Origin: Candidatus Binataceae bacterium
GTDB taxonomy: Bacteria > Desulfobacterota > Binatia > Binatales > Binataceae
Assembly: GCA_035626155.1 (NCBI GenBank)
Contig: DASPOF010000027.1
Coordinates: forward strand, 10,685-74,684
Direction: 5' to 3'
DNA length: 64,000 nucleotides
Shown here: positions 9,482 to 56,185 of the stretch, piece after piece
Position numbering within the stretch: the stretch's first letter is position 1
How the letters are laid out: every line of letters begins with the position of its first letter
Position numbers and translations under genes: made by a program
The notes under the pieces: generated by a model
What the model was told of the DNA's origin: nothing
The model's database searches: none
What the model saw: only the letters and a program-made list of their open reading frames with translations

Positions 9482-10027
9482 TCAGCCCGTGCTGCCGAGC
9501 CTGATTATCTCGGCCGAAACCTGCCCGCCGGATGCGACTTCGAGGATCGCAACCGTGCCCGGCACTCCGGACAGATTGTGCGGCAGCGTGGCGCTGCCGG
9601 GATTCACGACCAAAGTCGGCCCGATGCGCGCGATGCCCTCGACGTGGCTGTGCCCCTGCACGATCACGTCCACCGGTCCGCCGAAGTGCGACCGCATCGC
9701 ATCCTCGAATGCCGCGTGCGAAGTCTCCTCCGGCATCGGAATCGCGTGGATAAGCCCGATGCGCACGCCCTCGACTTCGACCAGGTGCGCCTCTCGCACG
9801 CGGGAGTCGGGCTCAAGCTGGAAGCGGTGGCCGTCCAGGCCCTCATCGCCGTTGCCGAGCGCCGCGATTACCGGCGCGATTTTCGCGAGTTCATCGAGCA
9901 CGCGATTCACGTACACGTCGCCCGCGTGCATCACCAGGTCGATGCCGCGGAAGGCGTCAAAGACCTCGGCGGGCAGATGTTCGCAGGCCTCGGGGATGTG
10001 AGTATCAGAGATGAGCCCGATACGCAT
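9482..10027 (-). CDS. Metallophosphoesterase, YfcE/MJ0936 family
   Basis: Motifs MRIGLISDTH, GDV, GNGD and GHSH. ATG at 10027. Confidence 0.8.
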   Translation of the reverse strand: MRIGLISDTHIPEACEHLPAEVFDAFRGIDLVMHAGDVYVNRVLDELAKIAPVIAALGNGDEGLDGHRFQLEPDSRVREAHLVEVEGVRIGLIHAIPMPEETSHAAFEDAMRSHFGGPVDVIVQGHSHVEGIARIGPTLVVNPGSATLPHNLSGVPGTVAILEVASGGQVSAEIIRLGSTG

Positions 10028-10155
10028 GGTGGATTGCTCTGCGTCAGGGCCATCGGCCCGCCGCAATCGGTAAAAGCTACCATGCGCCCCTGCGTGCGGC
10101 AATTTTAAGCTTTTGGCGGCGGGGAGCGGGTTTCGTTTGGCGTCGGTTGGATGGG

Positions 10156-10207
10156 CGGTATTCTGAGCCCTCTCCCCATGGCCGGGAGAGGGTTTGGGAG
10201 AGGGACC
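10156..10207. repeat. GGGAGAGGG inverted-repeat element, copy A (cggtattctgagccctctcccc...gggagagggtttgggagagggacc)
   Basis: About 52 bp with internal CCCTCTCCC/GGGAGAGGG hairpin. Near-identical to the copy at 49128-49179 and reverse-complementary to the copy at 10581-10635. Confidence 0.8.
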
Positions 10208-10548
10208 TACAGCTGCCGGAGAATCTCCTCGAGCACCCCCTCGATGTTGGTCAGCACCTCGCTATCCCAAAATCTCAGCACCCGGTAGCCACTCGCAGCC
10301 AGCACCGCTGAACGCCTCTGGTCAGCTCCTTGCTGAGCCGGTTCCGCGTGTTGCCCTCCGTCCAGTTCCACAATCAACTGGCGCTCGACGCAGCAGAAAT
10401 CGGCCACGTAAGGCCCGATCGGGTATTGGCGGCGAAATTTGACTCCCAGCCGGCCGGCGCGAAGCTGCATCCATAGCCTGAGCTCCGTCTCCGTTTGCTC
10501 GCGCCGCAGGTGCCGAGCCAGATCTCGCATCAATGGCGGCTTCGACAT
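10207..10548 (-). CDS. DUF559 (Vsr-like endonuclease domain) protein
   Basis: 113 aa from the ATG at 10548 (MSKPPLMRDLARHLRREQTETELRLW...RQYPIGPYVADFCCVERQLIVELDGGQH...GYRVLRFWDSEV), which is the characteristic DUF559 pattern. Flanked by inverted copies of the repeat element. Confidence 0.65.
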   Translation of the reverse strand: MSKPPLMRDLARHLRREQTETELRLWMQLRAGRLGVKFRRQYPIGPYVADFCCVERQLIVELDGGQHAEPAQQGADQRRSAVLAASGYRVLRFWDSEVLTNIEGVLEEILRQL

Positions 10549-10580
10549 GAATGCCCGGCTGTGCAGCGTATTACCTACAA

Positions 10581-10635
10581 GGTCCCTCACCCAAACCCTC
10601 TCCCATTGATCACAGGGAGAGGGCTCAGATTGTTC
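10581..10635. repeat. GGGAGAGGG inverted-repeat element, copy B (opposite orientation to copy A)
   Basis: Its reverse complement (gaacaatctgagccctctccc...gggagagggtttgggtgagggacc) matches copy A apart from the spacer. Confidence 0.8.
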
Positions 10636-10733
10636 TCGAGCGGCGCACCCGATTTCGCATCGAGTTGGTGAGCCTCCATAGGCAGGCCACTCAAAACCGC
10701 CCACTACGCTTTTGGCGGCGGGGAGTGCGCAAC

Positions 10734-11381
10734 CTACTGGGAGCCGGCGGACGGGCGCGATTCCTTCGCTGCGCCATCGCTCGCAACCTGGCGTATTTCC
10801 GCGGTGAGCTCGGAGGCGAACTCGGCCATCACCTGGTTGAACGACATGCTGATCGCCTCGGCGGCCTGCTCGGGCGTGTCGCCGCCGGCGGGCGACTCCT
10901 TGCTAATCACCTTGCACCACAGCGCGCGCGAGAACGGATCGCGCGGGAAGATGCAGAACCGGATCGCGACCACGCCCGTGTGCTGAGCGCCGTCGTCGAC
11001 CTCCTGGAACGCCTTGATGCGCGTATCGAGGAGCAGCGGATGGGCGGCCGCCGTCTCCGGACCGACGGGCGACGGGCTATAGATGATTTCGTGGAGCCGC
11101 TCGGAGACGAGATCGGTCGGCGGCTCGACCCATCGATGGAATTTGTAGGTGTCGAGCCGGTAGGGCGAAGTCTGGTAGGCGATCCCCGTGTCCTGGAAGG
11201 GCTCGGAGCCTGTCACGTTGCGAAGCTCGATCCTGGCGGTGGGCGGAATCTCTGCAACCGCGGTCGTGGGGGCGAGCTGGTATCGATGCGTCGCCGGAAC
11301 GCTTCGCGCGAGCAGGCTGCATCCCGCGAAGCTCGCCGCCAGCGTCAGCGCAATCGGGGTGGCCGCGCGCTCGCGCATCAT
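10734..11381 (-). CDS. ABC-transport auxiliary lipoprotein (DUF330/PqiC-like) of the Mla/MCE operon
   Basis: Lipoprotein signal with lipobox (LTLAASFAGC). Start ATGATG(A) overlaps the stop of the upstream MCE gene. Confidence 0.6.
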   Translation of the reverse strand: MMRERAATPIALTLAASFAGCSLLARSVPATHRYQLAPTTAVAEIPPTARIELRNVTGSEPFQDTGIAYQTSPYRLDTYKFHRWVEPPTDLVSERLHEIIYSPSPVGPETAAAHPLLLDTRIKAFQEVDDGAQHTGVVAIRFCIFPRDPFSRALWCKVISKESPAGGDTPEQAAEAISMSFNQVMAEFASELTAEIRQVASDGAAKESRPSAGSQ

Positions 11382-20285: not shown

Positions 20286-20603
20286 CCAATCCCTCTCCCT
20301 GAAAGGGAGAGGGTAGGTGAGGGTCCTAATATAGCGCCGCGTCGTTTGCGGCGCGGGCTAAAGATTCTGAGATATTCGATCGATCTTTCGAATCAGAATC
20401 TTATGTCGCACGCCTCGGATTTGCGCTCGCCCTTCGGATTAGTCATTCCCGCGCGTCTGAGTTGCCTGGCGCGCGAGGAATCCCGGATCTCATTCGATCT
20501 TTTCAGAATCTTATATCGCGCGATCGATGACGATCGCGCGACGCTGAGGACCCTCACCCGAACCTCTCCCATTCCGGTAGAGGAGTAGGAAAGAGGGAGA
20601 GGG
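20286..20603. repeat. Inverted pair of GGGAGAGGG elements (20286-20326 and 20548-20603) enclosing about 220 bp of palindromic non-coding sequence
   Basis: Left arm ccaatccctctccctgaaagggagagggtaggtgagggtcc; right arm ggaccctcacccgaacctctccc...gggagagggg in the opposite orientation. The interior holds a near-perfect long palindrome (agattctgagatattcgatcgatctttcgaatcagaatct). Confidence 0.7.
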
Positions 20604-20690
20604 GCAAAAGGGGCGCGCCTCAGGCGCTTGCGCGGAGGAAATCTCGGAGTTGAGATTCGACGCGACGAACGCGTAAAGTGACAAAATGTT

Positions 20691-20744
20691 GCGCGGGCGA
20701 GGACGCCCGCGCATCTCTCGGCGGGCACGGCGGCCCGCCCCACT
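20691..20744. repeat. 54-bp direct repeat, copy 1 (gcgcgggcgaggacgcccgcgcatctctcggcgggcacggcggcccgccccact)
   Basis: Repeated at 21193-21246 with one mismatch (53/54 identical). Contains internal hairpins. Confidence 0.8.
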
Positions 20745-20749
20745 AGTTC

Positions 20750-21169
20750 TTGATGATACAACCCAAAAACAAAGCAGCAGCCCTCTTTGCTTCCTTCGGT
20801 CTGGCACTTTTGTTGTCGTCGCCCGCGCTCTGTGGCGAGCCAATGTCGAGTCCAATGTACTCCAGCCCAGATATGCCAGGGAAAATCACAACTCCGTTTG
20901 ATATGCGCCCGACCGCATCATCGGGGCCCGTCGAGAATTCGGGGGAGAAGGCGGAGGCCCCGTCACCGCCTGCCGATCCGCTTTGCGAAAAGCTCAAGCG
21001 GCTGCGCGACCAAGTCCCCGGAGCGGAAGGAGGACCCGAGGGCCCACCTGCAAGCCACGCCCCCTGGGAATTAGAAATGCGGCGAAGGCGGGACCAACTG
21101 AACGCTGAGATCAAACAGGTCGAAGCTGAAATAAAATCGAAGGGGATCGAGTGCCCGCCGCCAGACTAG
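20750..21169 (+). CDS. Small secreted Cys-containing coiled-coil protein with a 'PLCEKL' motif
   Basis: Signal peptide (AAALFASFGLALLLSSPALC), an acidic/Pro-rich middle and a coiled-coil C-terminus. Shares the CEKL(xx)L motif with the 404-aa protein at 47845-49059. Weak RBS. Confidence 0.5.
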   Translation: MMIQPKNKAAALFASFGLALLLSSPALCGEPMSSPMYSSPDMPGKITTPFDMRPTASSGPVENSGEKAEAPSPPADPLCEKLKRLRDQVPGAEGGPEGPPASHAPWELEMRRRRDQLNAEIKQVEAEIKSKGIECPPPD

Positions 21170-21192
21170 CAGGCCCGGCCTAGCCGAAGGTG

Positions 21193-21246
21193 GCGCGGGC
21201 GAGGACGCCCGCGCATCTTTCGGCGGGCACGGCGGCCCGCCCCACT
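21193..21246. repeat. 54-bp direct repeat, copy 2
   Basis: gcgcgggcgaggacgcccgcgcatctttcggcgggcacggcggcccgccccact. Confidence 0.8.
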
Positions 21247-47844: not shown

Positions 47845-49059
47845 ATGACGGCAAAATCTCCTGCCTGGTGGATGGTTCCCCTCCTGGGGGCGATTTTCGT
47901 TGCCTGCCGCGCATCGCCGGCGCCCCGCGCCGAGCTTCAGCCCAGTCAGCCCTGCGAGAAGCTTACCGAGGCGCTCCGGATTCAAGAGCGTCTGGCGCAC
48001 GAGTGTAGTCGCGGGCCCGCGCGGTCCGCCGGACCAGCGGCGCCCACGCGCCCGTGCGGTCCGAAGGACTACTGCTGTTCGGTGGAATATCGGATGCGCA
48101 GCTACGAAGCGGACAAGGCGGTGGATGAGATCGAAGAGCAGATGGGGTCTCAAGGCGCGTCTTGCTATTGCTCGAGAGACCCGGCGCAATGCCACGTGCC
48201 ACAGCCGCGCGAGCTTGAACTTTGCGAAAATGTCGCGCGAACGAATCAGGCGCACGAGAATGCGGAAGCTGCCCTTGAAGAATCAGACAGCGACAACATG
48301 TATGACGTTATTCATACCCCGCCACGGAATGCAGAAGAGGCCGCTTCGCTGAAGCGCTTGAGGGAAGCGAATCAGGCGATCGAGCTAACGGAAAAGGCGG
48401 CCGACGAGGCCGAGGCGGAGGCCTCCGCGCAAGGAATCAATTGCGAGAACATCGTCGAAGGCTGGCGCGCATCGCCGACGCCCTGCGGCGAGCCGGGTCC
48501 GAATCCGCTTTGCGAGAAACTCGCAAAGGCCATGGAGGAAAGTGACGCGCAGAGGCATCAGGAACCTGTGTGCGCCGCGCCGGTTAATACGCAAGGGGCC
48601 GCAGTCATCCAATGGCTACCGTCTTGCCCCGAGTGGACCGATTGGAAGAAGCGCGGCGACGAAGCGCAGCGAGCAATCGATCAGGTCAAGGCGCAGATGA
48701 GGTCGGACGGGACCACCTGTTTTTGCGCTCAACACGGGACGTTGTGGCGCTGCCGGCCGGGCTGCTCTCGCGAAGCTGAACTTTGCAAGCAACTCGACGC
48801 GGCCAACCAAGCGTACTCGCAGGCGATGGCCGGCGCGCACGAGTTCGCGCCCTGCTATTCGCCTTGCGAGCCGATCGGGACCGGCCTTCCGGGGATGCCC
48901 AAGGCACCCGTTGGGATCGCCGACATTCCCGGCGTCGCGCCCTCGGTGATGGAAGAAAAGCGAAGCCGCATCAGGGAAGCGCGTGGTGTGCTCGATGAGG
49001 CCCGGGCCAAGGTGGATGCGGAAAAGTTCGATTGCCAGGGATTCCAGCCGGAACAGTGA
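47845..49059 (+). CDS. Secreted Cys-rich coiled-coil protein with repeated 'P(L)CEKL' modules
   Basis: GGAGGCGAAGGAG RBS, a signal peptide, about 20 Cys and three CEKL/CKQL modules. Related to 20750-21169. Confidence 0.55.
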   Translation: MTAKSPAWWMVPLLGAIFVACRASPAPRAELQPSQPCEKLTEALRIQERLAHECSRGPARSAGPAAPTRPCGPKDYCCSVEYRMRSYEADKAVDEIEEQMGSQGASCYCSRDPAQCHVPQPRELELCENVARTNQAHENAEAALEESDSDNMYDVIHTPPRNAEEAASLKRLREANQAIELTEKAADEAEAEASAQGINCENIVEGWRASPTPCGEPGPNPLCEKLAKAMEESDAQRHQEPVCAAPVNTQGAAVIQWLPSCPEWTDWKKRGDEAQRAIDQVKAQMRSDGTTCFCAQHGTLWRCRPGCSREAELCKQLDAANQAYSQAMAGAHEFAPCYSPCEPIGTGLPGMPKAPVGIADIPGVAPSVMEEKRSRIREARGVLDEARAKVDAEKFDCQGFQPEQ

Positions 49060-49127
49060 CCCGCGCGCCGCGAAGTGCGCGATCAAGAGGCAAGCCCCGC
49101 CGGTAGTGGGCGGGTTTCATTTGCCGT

Positions 49128-49179
49128 CGGTATTCTGAGCCCTCTCCCTATCGCTGGGAGAGGGTGTGGGAGAGGGACC
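49128..49179. repeat. GGGAGAGGG inverted-repeat element, copy C (solo)
   Basis: cggtattctgagccctctccctatcgctgggagagggtgtgggagagggacc; about 90% identical to copy A. Followed at 49180-49214 by a 12-bp perfect hairpin (gcttcgcggcgc...gcgccgcgaagc). Confidence 0.8.
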
Positions 49180-49261: not shown

Positions 49262-49864
49262 TTGCGCCGGCGCGCGCGATCGGAAGGGAAGATTCACATC
49301 GCGCGGGTTATTGCGGTGAAACCATCAACTGCTGACCTCATCAAGGGCATCCGACACGACCTAATCGAGGCGCGCAATTGCTTTTCGGTTTACCGTGCCT
49401 ACAAGCTCAAAGAGACGCGCGAAAAATACTCAGACGCGTTTCGGACATTCAAGCCATTCCTTTCGTGCGATCTCCGTGCCCACTTCGCCGCGATGATGGT
49501 GACGCTAGGTCGCATTTTCGACCGGGAACCAAAGTACATTGGAATCGCTGCCTTGCTAAAAGCCGCTCCGCACCTCAAGGACTTGGAACCGGAGAAGTAT
49601 AAGCTCGCGATGGATCTCTGGGCGAGCGAGAAAATAATGCTGCTGCGGCATCAAGTTGTCGCTCACCGCTCGCCTCGCACGGAGAAGATTTTCCAGCTTG
49701 TCGATACATGCCTTGCTGACTTCAGCAAGCTCATTCAGTTGCTAGAGCAGCTGGTCGAAGCGTGGTCCCGAGCAGCCAAGTGCGATATGCGTAATTTGGG
49801 GCCAAAAATGGATCGAGAGGTGGATGACCTCCTGAAAGCTTTGAACCGGGTCTCCAAGGATTAG
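49262..49864 (+). CDS. Hypothetical protein in a low-GC (about 52%) stretch
   Basis: Compositionally atypical against the roughly 66% background and codon-periodic. TTG at the annotated start; the true start is uncertain. Confidence 0.4.
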   Translation: MRRRARSEGKIHIARVIAVKPSTADLIKGIRHDLIEARNCFSVYRAYKLKETREKYSDAFRTFKPFLSCDLRAHFAAMMVTLGRIFDREPKYIGIAALLKAAPHLKDLEPEKYKLAMDLWASEKIMLLRHQVVAHRSPRTEKIFQLVDTCLADFSKLIQLLEQLVEAWSRAAKCDMRNLGPKMDREVDDLLKALNRVSKD

Positions 49865-49876
49865 CCTCGCGCGTTT

Positions 49877-49928
49877 CTTCCTCTTTCCCTTCCCCCGCAT
49901 TCGGTTGCGGGGGCAGGGAAAGAAGGAG
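49877..49928. terminator. Long imperfect hairpin between convergent genes (core cccccgc-attcggtt-gcggggg)
   Basis: cttcctctttcccttcccccgcattcggttgcgggggcagggaaagaaggag. Confidence 0.4.
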
Positions 49929-49948
49929 CGGCGCGCGCGGCGGGGCGA

Positions 49949-50317
49949 TTACTTCTGGCAGAAACTCCGGACGTAGCCGACCAGGCCCTTGATTTCGGTG
50001 TCATCCAGCCCGTCGGCGTAGCCGGCCATCTTCGGGCTAAGGTCGGCCGCCGGGCCGCCTTCCTTGATCACCTTGAACACGACATCATCGGTGACCCTCG
50101 CCATGCGCGCGCAATCGGTCAGGTCGCCGGGCTTGGTGGCGAGCGTTGAGGCGGCCGGGCCGTCGCCCCGTCCGGATGCTCCGTGGCACTTGACGCACAG
50201 GGTTCTGTAGTTGTCCTTTGCGGCGGCGAGGTCCTCGGCGCGCGCCTGGAATGCGCCGAGCGCAAATACAAACGCCACGAACGTGAGAATACTTAGTCGA
50301 ACAATCAGCGATTTCAT
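49949..50317 (-). CDS. Monohaem class-I c-type cytochrome (c553-like), exported
   Basis: Signal peptide, a single CVKCH motif, and a distal Met region. Paralog of 55802-56185. Confidence 0.8.
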   Translation of the reverse strand: MKSLIVRLSILTFVAFVFALGAFQARAEDLAAAKDNYRTLCVKCHGASGRGDGPAASTLATKPGDLTDCARMARVTDDVVFKVIKEGGPAADLSPKMAGYADGLDDTEIKGLVGYVRSFCQK

Positions 50318-55395: not shown

Positions 55396-55801
55396 GCAGC
55401 TCCTGCGCTAACGTTCCACCCGGGGCATTTGGGGGAAAACCGCGGCGGCGCTCCCTGCCGATATCGCGGCCACCGTGTCCGTCTGCATCATGACTCTTTT
55501 CGCGTCTCCTGCCCCGCCTAATGCAACTGGTGTACCCGGATAAGTGATCCTTAAAATCCCGAAATATCTGGGCCTTTCTCCCTGGCCCCGCGAACCAACT
55601 GTTGCCTTTGACTCCAGCACAGTTGGCGACGGTGGCGCGTTCGGACTCACAAGCGACAGCGTGTACGGCAGTCTAGCGGCTCACTCAAATCGGGGCTCGA
55701 CCCGCTACTTTTTCGCGGGAGCCCAAGTCCGCTAGTTCGCGTGGGAGGGCCCGCCGCCCTCGATCTCAACCCGGGTCAGTATGCCCTCCGGCTTTTGGCG
55801 A

Positions 55802-56185
55802 TCACTTCTTGCAGAAGCTCCGCAGGTAGCCGACCAAGCCCTTGATGTCGGCGTCGCTCATCCCGTCGCCGAAGGGAGGCATCGCCGCGTTCAAGTTCGC
55901 CGCCGGTCCGCCTTCCTTGATAACCTTGAAGATGGTGTCATCGGTGACCTTCGACATCTTCGCGCAATCGGTAAAGTCACCCACCTTCGCTGAGAGCTTC
56001 GAGGCGCTGGGGCCATCGCCCTTGCCGGTCTGGCCGTGGCAGTCTGCGCATGAATCCGTGTAAGTGGCCTTCGCATCGGCCGATGCGGGCGCCGCTCTGA
56101 GAACCAGCGCGAGCGTTGCCGCTGCGGGCAGTGCGACAAGCATCCAACCCATCGATCTCACTTTCGTCCCCGAATAATTCGGCAT
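55802..56185 (-). CDS. Monohaem class-I c-type cytochrome (paralog of 49949-50317)
   Basis: ATG at 56185 with a GGAGG RBS, a signal peptide and CADCH. The C-terminus (KVTDDTIFKVIKEGGPAANL...IKGLVGYLRSFCKK) is near-identical in pattern to its paralog. Confidence 0.75.
   Translation of the reverse strand: MPNYSGTKVRSMGWMLVALPAAATLALVLRAAPASADAKATYTDSCADCHGQTGKGDGPSASKLSAKVGDFTDCAKMSKVTDDTIFKVIKEGGPAANLNAAMPPFGDGMSDADIKGLVGYLRSFCKK

Follow-up and report, generated by a model that had tools for sequence, protein, structure and literature searches.

A short intergenic repeat accompanies a gene for a DUF559 family nuclease in a stretch of 64,000 nucleotides (nt) from the genome of a Candidatus Binataceae bacterium (contig DASPOF010000027.1), the whole of which is referred to here as the window. 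The sequence GGGAGAGGG was found 11 times in the window against 0.62 expected, a count reached in none of 100 shuffles, and GGGWGAGGG was found 14 times against 1.03 expected. The GGGAGAGGG occurrences group into five copies (A to E) of one element, all of them intergenic, in which an outer CTGAG is followed by a hairpin (CCCTCTCCC-loop-GGGAGAGGG), three bases (NNN), a third block GGGWGAGGG and then WCC (Table 1). Copies A and B are inverted around the DUF559 gene, the only one in the window; C and D form a second inverted pair that is gene-free, and E stands alone. This bears out a previous description made from the letters of the DNA (the sequence-only reading), which had listed five copies of a roughly 50-bp element, an inverted pair around a DUF559 gene, a second inverted pair with a long internal palindrome and no open reading frame (ORF), and a solo copy before a gene of low GC content. 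The gene-free copies belong to the same subtype (CTGAG...ACC) as those flanking the gene.

Table 1. Positions of the repeat copies, the DUF559 unit and other features in the window (numbering from the first nucleotide of the window).
Feature	Position	Strand	Description
Left 18-nt direct repeat	10109-10126	+	GCTTTTGGCGGCGGGGAG; 36 nt outside copy A
Copy A	10163-10207	+	inverted repeat downstream of the DUF559 gene
Copy A, outer end	10163-10167		CTGAG
Copy A, pyrimidine block	10168-10176		CCCTCTCCC
Copy A, purine block	10184-10192		GGGAGAGGG
Copy A, third block (inner side)	10196-10204		GGGAGAGGG
Copy A, inner end	10205-10207		ACC
DUF559 nuclease coding sequence	10207-10548	-	113 amino acids plus TAG stop; Vsr-fold PD-(D/E)XK
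Leader	10549-10580	-	32 nt separating the ATG from copy B (inner end)
Copy B	10581-10628	-	inverted repeat upstream of the DUF559 gene
Copy B, inner part	10581-10592		GGTCCCTCACCC (as read on the + strand)
Copy B, second part	10596-10604		CCCTCTCCC (as read on the + strand)
Copy B, third part	10615-10623		GGGAGAGGG (as read on the + strand)
Copy B, outer end	10624-10628		CTCAG (as read on the + strand)
Right 18-nt direct repeat	10708-10725	+	GCTTTTGGCGGCGGGGAG; within a terminator-like hairpin
Copy C	20291-20327	+	left arm of the gene-free pair; hairpin z = -3.6
C-D interior	20328-20547	.	220 nt, non-coding, GC 53.7%, several internal palindromes
Copy D	20548-20603	-	right arm of the gene-free pair; degenerate, with a 23-nt loop and purine block GGGAGAGG
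60-nt direct repeat, first copy	20685-20744		two GC-rich hairpins
139-residue ORF	20750-21169	+	secreted or lipoprotein-like
60-nt direct repeat, second copy	21187-21246		95% identical to the first
404-residue protein	47845-49059		precedes copy E
Copy E	49135-49179	+	solo; directly after a terminator-like hairpin
HEPN_AbiU2 ORF	49262-49864	+	match E = 2.7e-10
Polypyrimidine/polypurine hairpin	49868-49925		23 bp, CTTCCTCTTTCCCTTCCCCCGCA...TGCGGGGGCAGGGAAAGAAGGAG
254-nt direct repeat, first copy	49944-50197		overlaps the cytochrome-c-like ORF
Cytochrome-c-like ORF	49949-50317	-
254-nt direct repeat, second copy	55797-56050		74% identical to the first

Copies A and E are 92% identical over 52 nt and have about 35 outer-flank bases in common as well. 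The inner arms of A and B are 96% complementary over 25 nt, the terminal inverted repeats extend to about 45 nt, and the predicted single-strand fold of the A-gene-B unit is a panhandle closed by a terminal stem of about 48 bp (z = -5.95). The C-D pair as a whole is predicted to form one long hairpin (z = -8.0), and the hairpin of copy D taken by itself folds no better than shuffled sequence. Neither a credible ORF nor a DUF559 remnant was detected in the 220-nt C-D interior; a second repeat family that seemed to lie there (TCATTCCCGCGCG) was rejected, as it is not enriched in the window. The best direct repeat flanking the A-B locus is an 18-nt pair that brackets the whole unit. Its left copy abuts the conserved promoter region of a YfcE-type phosphoesterase gene, and homology with the promoters of relatives ends there; its right copy lies downstream of an ABC_trans_aux lipoprotein gene and ends 8 nt from the stop codon (10734-10736) of that gene. 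Beyond the motif, the flanks of copies A (10128-10162) and E (49093-49134) have CGGGTTTCRTTTGSCGTCGGT...ATT in common, and the outer flank of B (10629-10707) has GTAGTGGGCGG(G)TTT in common with that of E. These flanks look like halves of intrinsic-terminator hairpins, which suggests that the element is located at terminators or next to them, or includes a portion of one. A promoter and terminator consensus scan of positions 10000-10800 found nothing, and an Rfam scan of the window at gathering thresholds returned tRNA only.

The 113-residue product of the gene between A and B is intact and matches Pfam DUF559 (PF04480) with E = 2.5e-38 (130.7 bits, gathering cut-off 20.6) and PDB 3HRL with E = 2.5e-38. 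Its score against NCBIfam PRK09767 (93 bits) lies under the equivalog cut-off of 218, and the Vsr model TIGR00632 scored 19.5 bits with a cut-off of 97.85. No family-invariant residue is missing; among them, D50, E61, D63 and H67 are conserved without exception in 24 aligned relatives and, given the fold, are probably catalytic. No cytosine methyltransferase ORF lies next to the gene, whose GC content is that of the host. Its TAG stop overlaps the last base at the inner end of copy A. The protein is 100% identical to one encoded in a Binataceae metagenome-assembled genome at NCBI. The public gene call for this protein starts at 10590, inside copy B, and at 127 residues it is probably too long: in the closest Binataceae relative (locus L001, 69% identity) the homologue starts at the position equivalent to the window ATG, and the layout is identical, including a TAG that overlaps GGTCCC.

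Triplex motifs of the BoxC or PIT type have been known since the 1990s, and to our knowledge neither a function nor an origin nor a partner protein has been established for them. By its block design and core sequence, the window repeat is a local subfamily of this motif, which was named BoxC in E. coli, then potential intrastrand triplex (PIT) and then TMECO (Holder et al., 2015, PMC4666352). The published consensus, CCCTCNCCC N3-6 GGGNGAGGG N3 GGGNGAGGG, describes a pyrimidine block and, after a loop, its complementary purine block, which a spacer of about 3 nt separates from a mirror-image purine block; the motif is found in more than 260 genomes, and its single strand forms a stable purine-motif triplex in vitro (PMC4666352). 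The window element resembles the published one (Hoyne and Maher, 2000; Holder et al., 2015) in its three-block design, near-identical core, intergenic location, multiple copies, inverted pairs and occurrence in many phyla. Copies A, B and E match all three consensus blocks exactly, and C and D have one deviation each. The window subfamily differs in that its first loops (7-10 nt in A, B and E) are longer than the published N3-6, its ends are conserved (CTGAG outside, ACC(T) inside) and one of its pairs has a DUF559 gene nested inside, whereas the published motif was not found associated with mobile elements and no associated gene was reported (PMC4666352).

One genome per species was scanned for GGGAGAGGGNNNGGGWGAGGG, which gave at least 120 stretches from about every phylum sampled, with hosts that include Pseudomonas, Enterobacteriaceae, Bradyrhizobium, cyanobacteria, Planctomycetes, Verrucomicrobia, Dehalococcoidia, Acidobacteriota, Bifidobacterium and Neisseria. 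The upstream CCCTCNCCC hairpin arm was present in nearly all matches listed, and the motif matches the E. coli copies in Table 1 of Holder et al. (PMC4666352). Since the exact core occurs in many phyla and agrees with a published consensus, the element is already known and is not private to this genome; a small family specific to this genome was thus not borne out, and only 5 of the 120 motif-selected loci listed lie near a DUF559 gene. The sequence-only reading had set against itself the prospect of a ubiquitous REP-like repeat (REP, repetitive extragenic palindromic) without orientation pairing. The repeat is ubiquitous, but pairing is not absent, as neighboring copies elsewhere form 41 inverted and 13 tandem pairs; frequent inverted pairs and unusually variable loci have also been described for the motif (PMC4666352).

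Around relatives of the DUF559 gene, the third block of asymmetric variants (for example GGGGGAAGG...GGATGGGGG) mirrors the purine block according to G*G, A*A or T*A. Because the window copies are self-mirroring they are uninformative on this rule, and it is the asymmetric variants that agree with the triplex model (PMC4666352). An alternative hairpin, in which the third block would be a direct copy of the purine block, was disfavored by the same variants.

The association of gene and motif was assessed from both sides, in a set limited to 80 metagenomic loci encoding relatives of the window protein (47-64% identity) and in the motif-selected loci. With the strict motif, 56 of the 80 relatives have a correctly oriented copy within 200 nt of the gene (upstream in 43, downstream and inverted in 36, both in 23). 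A general finder (Y-R-R finder), in which the purine block has to complement the pyrimidine block and the third block has to follow G*G and A/T*A, placed a motif beside the gene in 76 of 80 relatives and on both sides in 45, compared with 10 of 768 (1.3%) distant 235-nt windows and none of 770 shuffled flanks. The sequence-only reading had stated beforehand that it would fall if DUF559 genes elsewhere were never associated with the element, and these counts show the opposite. From the motif side, DUF559 lay within 8 kb in the five loci mentioned above, mostly directly beside the motif, and no other gene family recurred next to the motif among the 120 loci listed. The geometry is conserved, with the stop codon at or inside the inner motif end and the start 6-60 nt from the motif. 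As judged from these loci, genes of this DUF559 clade normally reside between inverted motif copies throughout bacteria.

The blocks themselves vary between lineages. Azospirillum, Deinococcus and Picosynechococcus have lineage-specific block sequences around the DUF559 gene (examples are CCTTCTCCC/GGGAGAAGG/GGGATGAGG, a C/G-rich type, and CCCCC-N5-GGGGG-N3-GGGGG), and as asymmetric variants keep the mirror rule, it is the design rather than one sequence that travels with the gene. Sphingomonas parapaucimobilis YK209 encodes three DUF559 paralogs (L247, L248 and L249) with 43-46% mutual identity, each with its own matched motif variant on both sides and each co-oriented within a housekeeping gene pair (sufB-sufC, yqeY-dnaG and pntAA-pntAB). 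The gaps to the flanking genes are very short there except before dnaG, and in two cases the next gene begins no more than 3 nt from the annotated stop. In Neisseria gonorrhoeae the homolog of PDB 3HRL is flanked by a direct repeat of about 100 nt containing a degenerate, lineage-specific variant of the motif, and in E. coli K-12 the DUF559 gene ycjD runs into a degenerate motif, which is followed by a duplicated fragment of the ycjD 3' end and then by TMECO #9.

DUF559 comprises about 26,000 clusters at 50% identity, and translated-motif peptides (e.g., GEGxGEG, PHPxPLP) were found in 50 of the best 150 cluster representatives. Over-long public calls read into the motif and end in GEGxGEG, WERVRVR, PHPxPLP or PSPxPSP tails, so that extension of DUF559 calls into the flanking motif is a systematic annotation artifact. 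Two relatives are single ORFs with three (P0361, 377 residues) and two (P0364, 262 residues) tandem DUF559 domains, either true fusions or read-through of tandem cassettes. The repeat was already known and so was the family, with its function unassigned; in the open-access literature on DUF559, ycjD, BoxC, intrastrand triplexes and inverted repeats, we found no paper linking gene and repeat. Their coupling across many phyla, with lineage co-variation and an empty-site comparison, thus appears to be new.

The empty-site comparison comes from a related Binatia lineage, in which the cassette is present at one locus and absent from the orthologous site. In L213 a DUF559 cassette lies between a UbiD gene and a Rieske oxygenase gene, whereas the spacer in L231 (Rieske gene 86.8% identical to that of L213 in nucleotides) is 57 nt long and contains one hairpin, CCCTCTCCC-14 nt-GGGCGAGGG. 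This hairpin with about 20 nt more is present twice in L213, as direct repeats (a duplication of about 55 bp). Between them lie 42 nt, a complete motif, a further 6 nt and the DUF559 ORF, which takes its final 13 codons from the second hairpin copy. L239, from a third lineage, has at this site a convergent pair that is empty and degenerate. Comparison of occupied and empty sites, proposed in the sequence-only reading as a check, could therefore be made in this lineage, but not at the window locus, where no empty site was recoverable. More distant Binatia relatives (L234, L235 and L237) have other repeat families in the UbiD-Rieske spacer, such as GTCATCCTGAGCG-N-AGCGAAGGATCT and TTCCTCG...CTCGGAATGACA hairpins, so this site collects repeats.

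Long flanking direct repeats of up to 123 nt were found at 27 of 73 loci. A frequent layout at such loci is motif(-)-spacer-motif(+)-gene-motif(-)-spacer-motif(+), and the repeats sometimes include the DUF559 3' end, as is also seen in E. coli. This layout is what recombination between element-borne and resident repeat copies would be expected to leave. No short target-site duplication of fixed length was found outside the inverted repeats at A/B, C/D or L001; the duplications present instead are 18 to about 120 nt long and are displaced from the ends or built of hairpins.

Between sapF and fabI, about 2,080 of 5,426 complete E. coli genomes contain an eefRABCD-type RND efflux operon, and the remaining genomes contain ycjD, motif remnants and TMECO #9. 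When K-12 (L203, fabI-ycjD-sapF) was compared with Nissle (L210, L212) and O157:H7 (L211), homology broke about 40 nt from TMECO #9. A 2026 paper describes replacement of the eefRABCD efflux operon by ycjD in some E. coli phylogroups and does not mention the repeat. In addition, L221 (positions ~1250-1500) and L222 (960-1090) are otherwise identical DUF559 loci that differ by an IS110-family element (DEDD_Tnp_IS110) within the purine block of the upstream motif in L221, with the breakpoint between GGGAGA and GGGTCAGGGTGAGGG.

Elsewhere in the window, copy E lies 82 nt upstream of the HEPN_AbiU2 ORF, which has a GC content of 54% compared with a window average of 63%. A polypyrimidine/polypurine hairpin with a sequence unlike the motif follows this gene, so that an accessory, defense-type gene is bracketed by pyrimidine/purine hairpins, the motif on its 5' side and the other on its 3' side. 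Immediately beside the C-D pair, the two copies of a 60-nt direct repeat bracket the 139-residue ORF, whose product has a PLCEKL-type motif in common with the 404-residue protein encoded before copy E. The 254-nt direct repeats further downstream probably represent paralogous genes.

Taken together, these observations are in our view best explained by a single genetic system of gene and repeats, the reading that we favor, with the case for and against it about evenly balanced. The motifs would serve as sites for the nuclease and host recombination would do the copying, with a gene-bearing master and gene-free derivatives. In this scheme the repeats would act in cis, recognized by the nuclease as folded hairpin/triplex or cruciform DNA, and nicks or breaks at the repeats would be repaired by host recombination from another copy. 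Such repair could copy the gene cassette, or gene-free repeats, into intergenic sites that contain a hairpin, leaving behind long direct duplications of the target hairpin. The A-gene-B unit would then be the master copy, and the C-D pair and copy E its derivatives, which combines the logic of a homing endonuclease with a division resembling that of RAYT and REPIN, one or a few gene-bearing copies and many gene-free ones. PD-(D/E)XK hydrolases hydrolyze DNA and cannot on their own carry out the strand transfer of a transposase. This property of the fold, the nearest solved relative of known function (the catalytic domain of the homing endonuclease I-Bth0305I, PDB 3R3P) and the SOS-inducing DNA damage caused in vivo by the Caulobacter DUF559 protein VsrA (PMC12907096) together favor a nuclease/repeat system. 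The comparisons above show what the repeat is, that it goes with the gene, that the two co-vary by lineage and that a cassette with a duplicated hairpin is present or absent at one site; from them we infer that the nuclease may act on the repeats and thereby drive their copying.

A more specific proposal, which we advance tentatively and as somewhat the less probable, is that DUF559 would be the cognate enzyme of BoxC/PIT repeats in general, reading their folded hairpin/triplex DNA and giving rise to copies of both the repeats and its own gene through repair, across bacterial genomes. This would be a second system of the REPIN/RAYT kind, with a different mechanism. The recognized feature might, speculatively, be a G:T or G:A mismatch formed when the common CCCTCGCCC block pairs with the purine block, as this version gives a G:A mismatch with GGGAGAGGG and a G:T pair with GGGTGAGGG. 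A G:T mispair is the kind of lesion that Vsr enzymes read.

All functional inference here is comparative, and several observations weigh against an active system of this kind. The difference between L213 and L231 could reflect loss of a cassette through deletion between the direct repeats instead of its insertion. At the locus in the window, no empty site was recovered among the relatives of the YfcE neighbor examined; those at 80-84% identity have a different upstream neighbor and no motif, and it is because synteny with relatives breaks exactly there that no clean empty allele is available. Identical DUF559 proteins (P0116, P0067) were always in one genomic context across samples, with no near-identical copies seen at different sites, and the paralogs within one genome are old, as in S. 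parapaucimobilis. Plasmid matches were limited to 39 of 72,556 records, mostly chromids or mislabeled chromosomes, and 16 loci matched in 2.9 million viral contigs. With the fixed context, the old paralogs, this rarity on plasmids and phages and the host-like GC of the window gene, movement, if any, must be rare, and the window unit is a long-standing resident of this genome; neither identical proteins, plasmids, viral contigs nor GC content gave a sign of recent transposition. Most motif copies among the motif-selected loci listed are far from DUF559, and E. coli lineages without ycjD still hold TMECO copies. Most TMECO loci are positionally stable across E. coli strains (PMC4666352).

Other explanations have to account for the same observations. 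The motifs may be structural or recombinogenic repeats of the host, without any enzymatic link to the nuclease, where small horizontally acquired cassettes land or persist. Motif loci are hot spots of rearrangement in E. coli (PMC4666352), the stretch between fabI and sapF contains either ycjD with the motif or the RND efflux operon, the UbiD-Rieske spacer contains different repeat families by lineage, and an IS110-family element lies inside one motif hairpin. We nevertheless consider a passive association unlikely: DUF559 is the sole gene family that recurs beside the motif in the loci listed, the three paralogs of one genome have their own matched variants instead of a shared host variant, and the stop- and start-to-motif geometry is tight and conserved. 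Less likely again is that the motifs are expression or insulation signals (hairpins at mRNA ends or supercoil-sensitive switches) for a potentially toxic, Vsr-like mismatch-repair nuclease unrelated to the spread of the repeat. The motif is mostly found away from the gene, in pairs and arrays, and no cytosine methyltransferase gene adjoins the window gene. Moreover, PIT elements had no promoter or terminator activity in E. coli in earlier work, and purine-motif triplexes cannot form in RNA, which indicates a role at the DNA level (PMC4666352). Such a function would fit the panhandle fold of the unit, the host-like GC and stable position of the gene, and the SOS induction of Caulobacter VsrA together with its proposed role in very-short-patch repair (PMC12907096).

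The sequence-only reading had described a mobile unit like miniature inverted-repeat transposable elements (MITEs), of a small transposable or homing family with DUF559 as the candidate mobilizing nuclease. Read as a classical transposon, DUF559 would be the transposase, C-D a MITE derivative and E a solo remnant. The long terminal inverted repeats, the palindromic gene-free pair and the presence/absence polymorphism in a relative resemble a classical transposon of this type, but the duplications are hairpin-built and variable in length rather than short target-site duplications, the 113-residue hydrolase lacks recombinase domains of the DDE, HUH, serine or tyrosine type, no two sites were seen to carry near-identical copies, and the C-D interior has no gene remnant. 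We regard such a transposon as improbable. Given the lack of a target-site duplication, of a strand-transfer domain and of recent transposition, a MITE plus autonomous transposon is the wrong class, and a repeat-associated or homing-type nuclease fits better. The interpretation made in the sequence-only reading is thus supported in part. Finally, the window copies and the commonest variant fit the canonical four-tract pattern of a regulatory G-quadruplex (G3-N3-G3-N3-G3-N3-G3). Circular dichroism and nuclear magnetic resonance data show a triplex (PMC4666352), and the DUF559-flanking variants GGGAGAAGG...GGGATGAGG and GGGGGAAGG...GGATGGGGG break the G-tracts and keep the hairpin and mirror block; the G-quadruplex was therefore rejected as the conserved feature, being very improbable.

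BoxC/PIT motifs have been linked to genome instability, and DUF559 is a very large family without an established substrate. Their coupling gives the repeat a candidate partner enzyme and DUF559 a candidate substrate, and it matters because two long-standing unknowns become testable. If the nuclease/repeat system is real, it would add to REP/RAYT another class of nuclease system tied to repeats, and possibly a case of an enzyme that reads non-B DNA. For annotation, the coupling accounts for thousands of mis-extended DUF559 calls with GEGxGEG or PHPxPLP tails.

Among known systems, MITEs are similar to the window repeats in having terminal inverted repeats, small size, a non-coding long-hairpin version (here C-D) and multiple copies, and differ in their short target-site duplications, cognate DDE-type transposases and bursts of near-identical copies. 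Free-standing and intron-borne homing endonucleases, in particular the Vsr-like EDxHD enzyme I-Bth0305I, have a catalytic domain related to that of the window protein (E = 7e-5 to PDB 3R3P). Their genes, like those for DUF559, are small and look selfish, and they lie between conserved genes in the orientation of the surrounding operon. A presence/absence polymorphism with precise boundaries at an orthologous site, as expected of a homing gene, is seen for a related cassette (L213 versus L231 and L239), where it may reflect either insertion or deletion. I-Bth0305I, in contrast, is encoded within a group I intron of a phage and has a region of its own for DNA binding, whereas the window unit has no intron or intein, is flanked by repeats and belongs to a family that is rare in phages. 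E. coli YcjD, N. gonorrhoeae NGO0050 (PDB 3HRL) and Caulobacter VsrA are members of the same family as the window protein, and we know of no demonstrated substrate or reported repeat association for any of the three. The ycjD and Neisseria genes also adjoin triplex-type repeats, and for VsrA a role in T:G mismatch repair linked to a solitary methyltransferase was proposed (PMC12907096).

A parallel in organization is the REP/REPIN-RAYT system (Bertels and Rainey, 2011, PMC3116915; PMC3337134). There, too, inverted copies of a short hairpin repeat flank a nuclease-type gene of low copy number, and further copies of this repeat are scattered through the genome singly or as inverted doublets. One genome may contain more than one such gene, each with its own repeat variant, and the elements are inherited mostly vertically and keep their positions. 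RAYTs, however, are HUH/Y1 transposases of the IS200/IS605 type that act on GTAG- or CGTC-tagged hairpins through covalent intermediates, whereas DUF559 is a Vsr-fold PD-(D/E)XK hydrolase and its repeat a pyrimidine/purine/mirror-purine triplex motif. Since the protein is not of the HUH/Y1 type, the likeness of the window unit to REP/REPIN-RAYT, as judged from this comparison, is one of analogy and not of membership.

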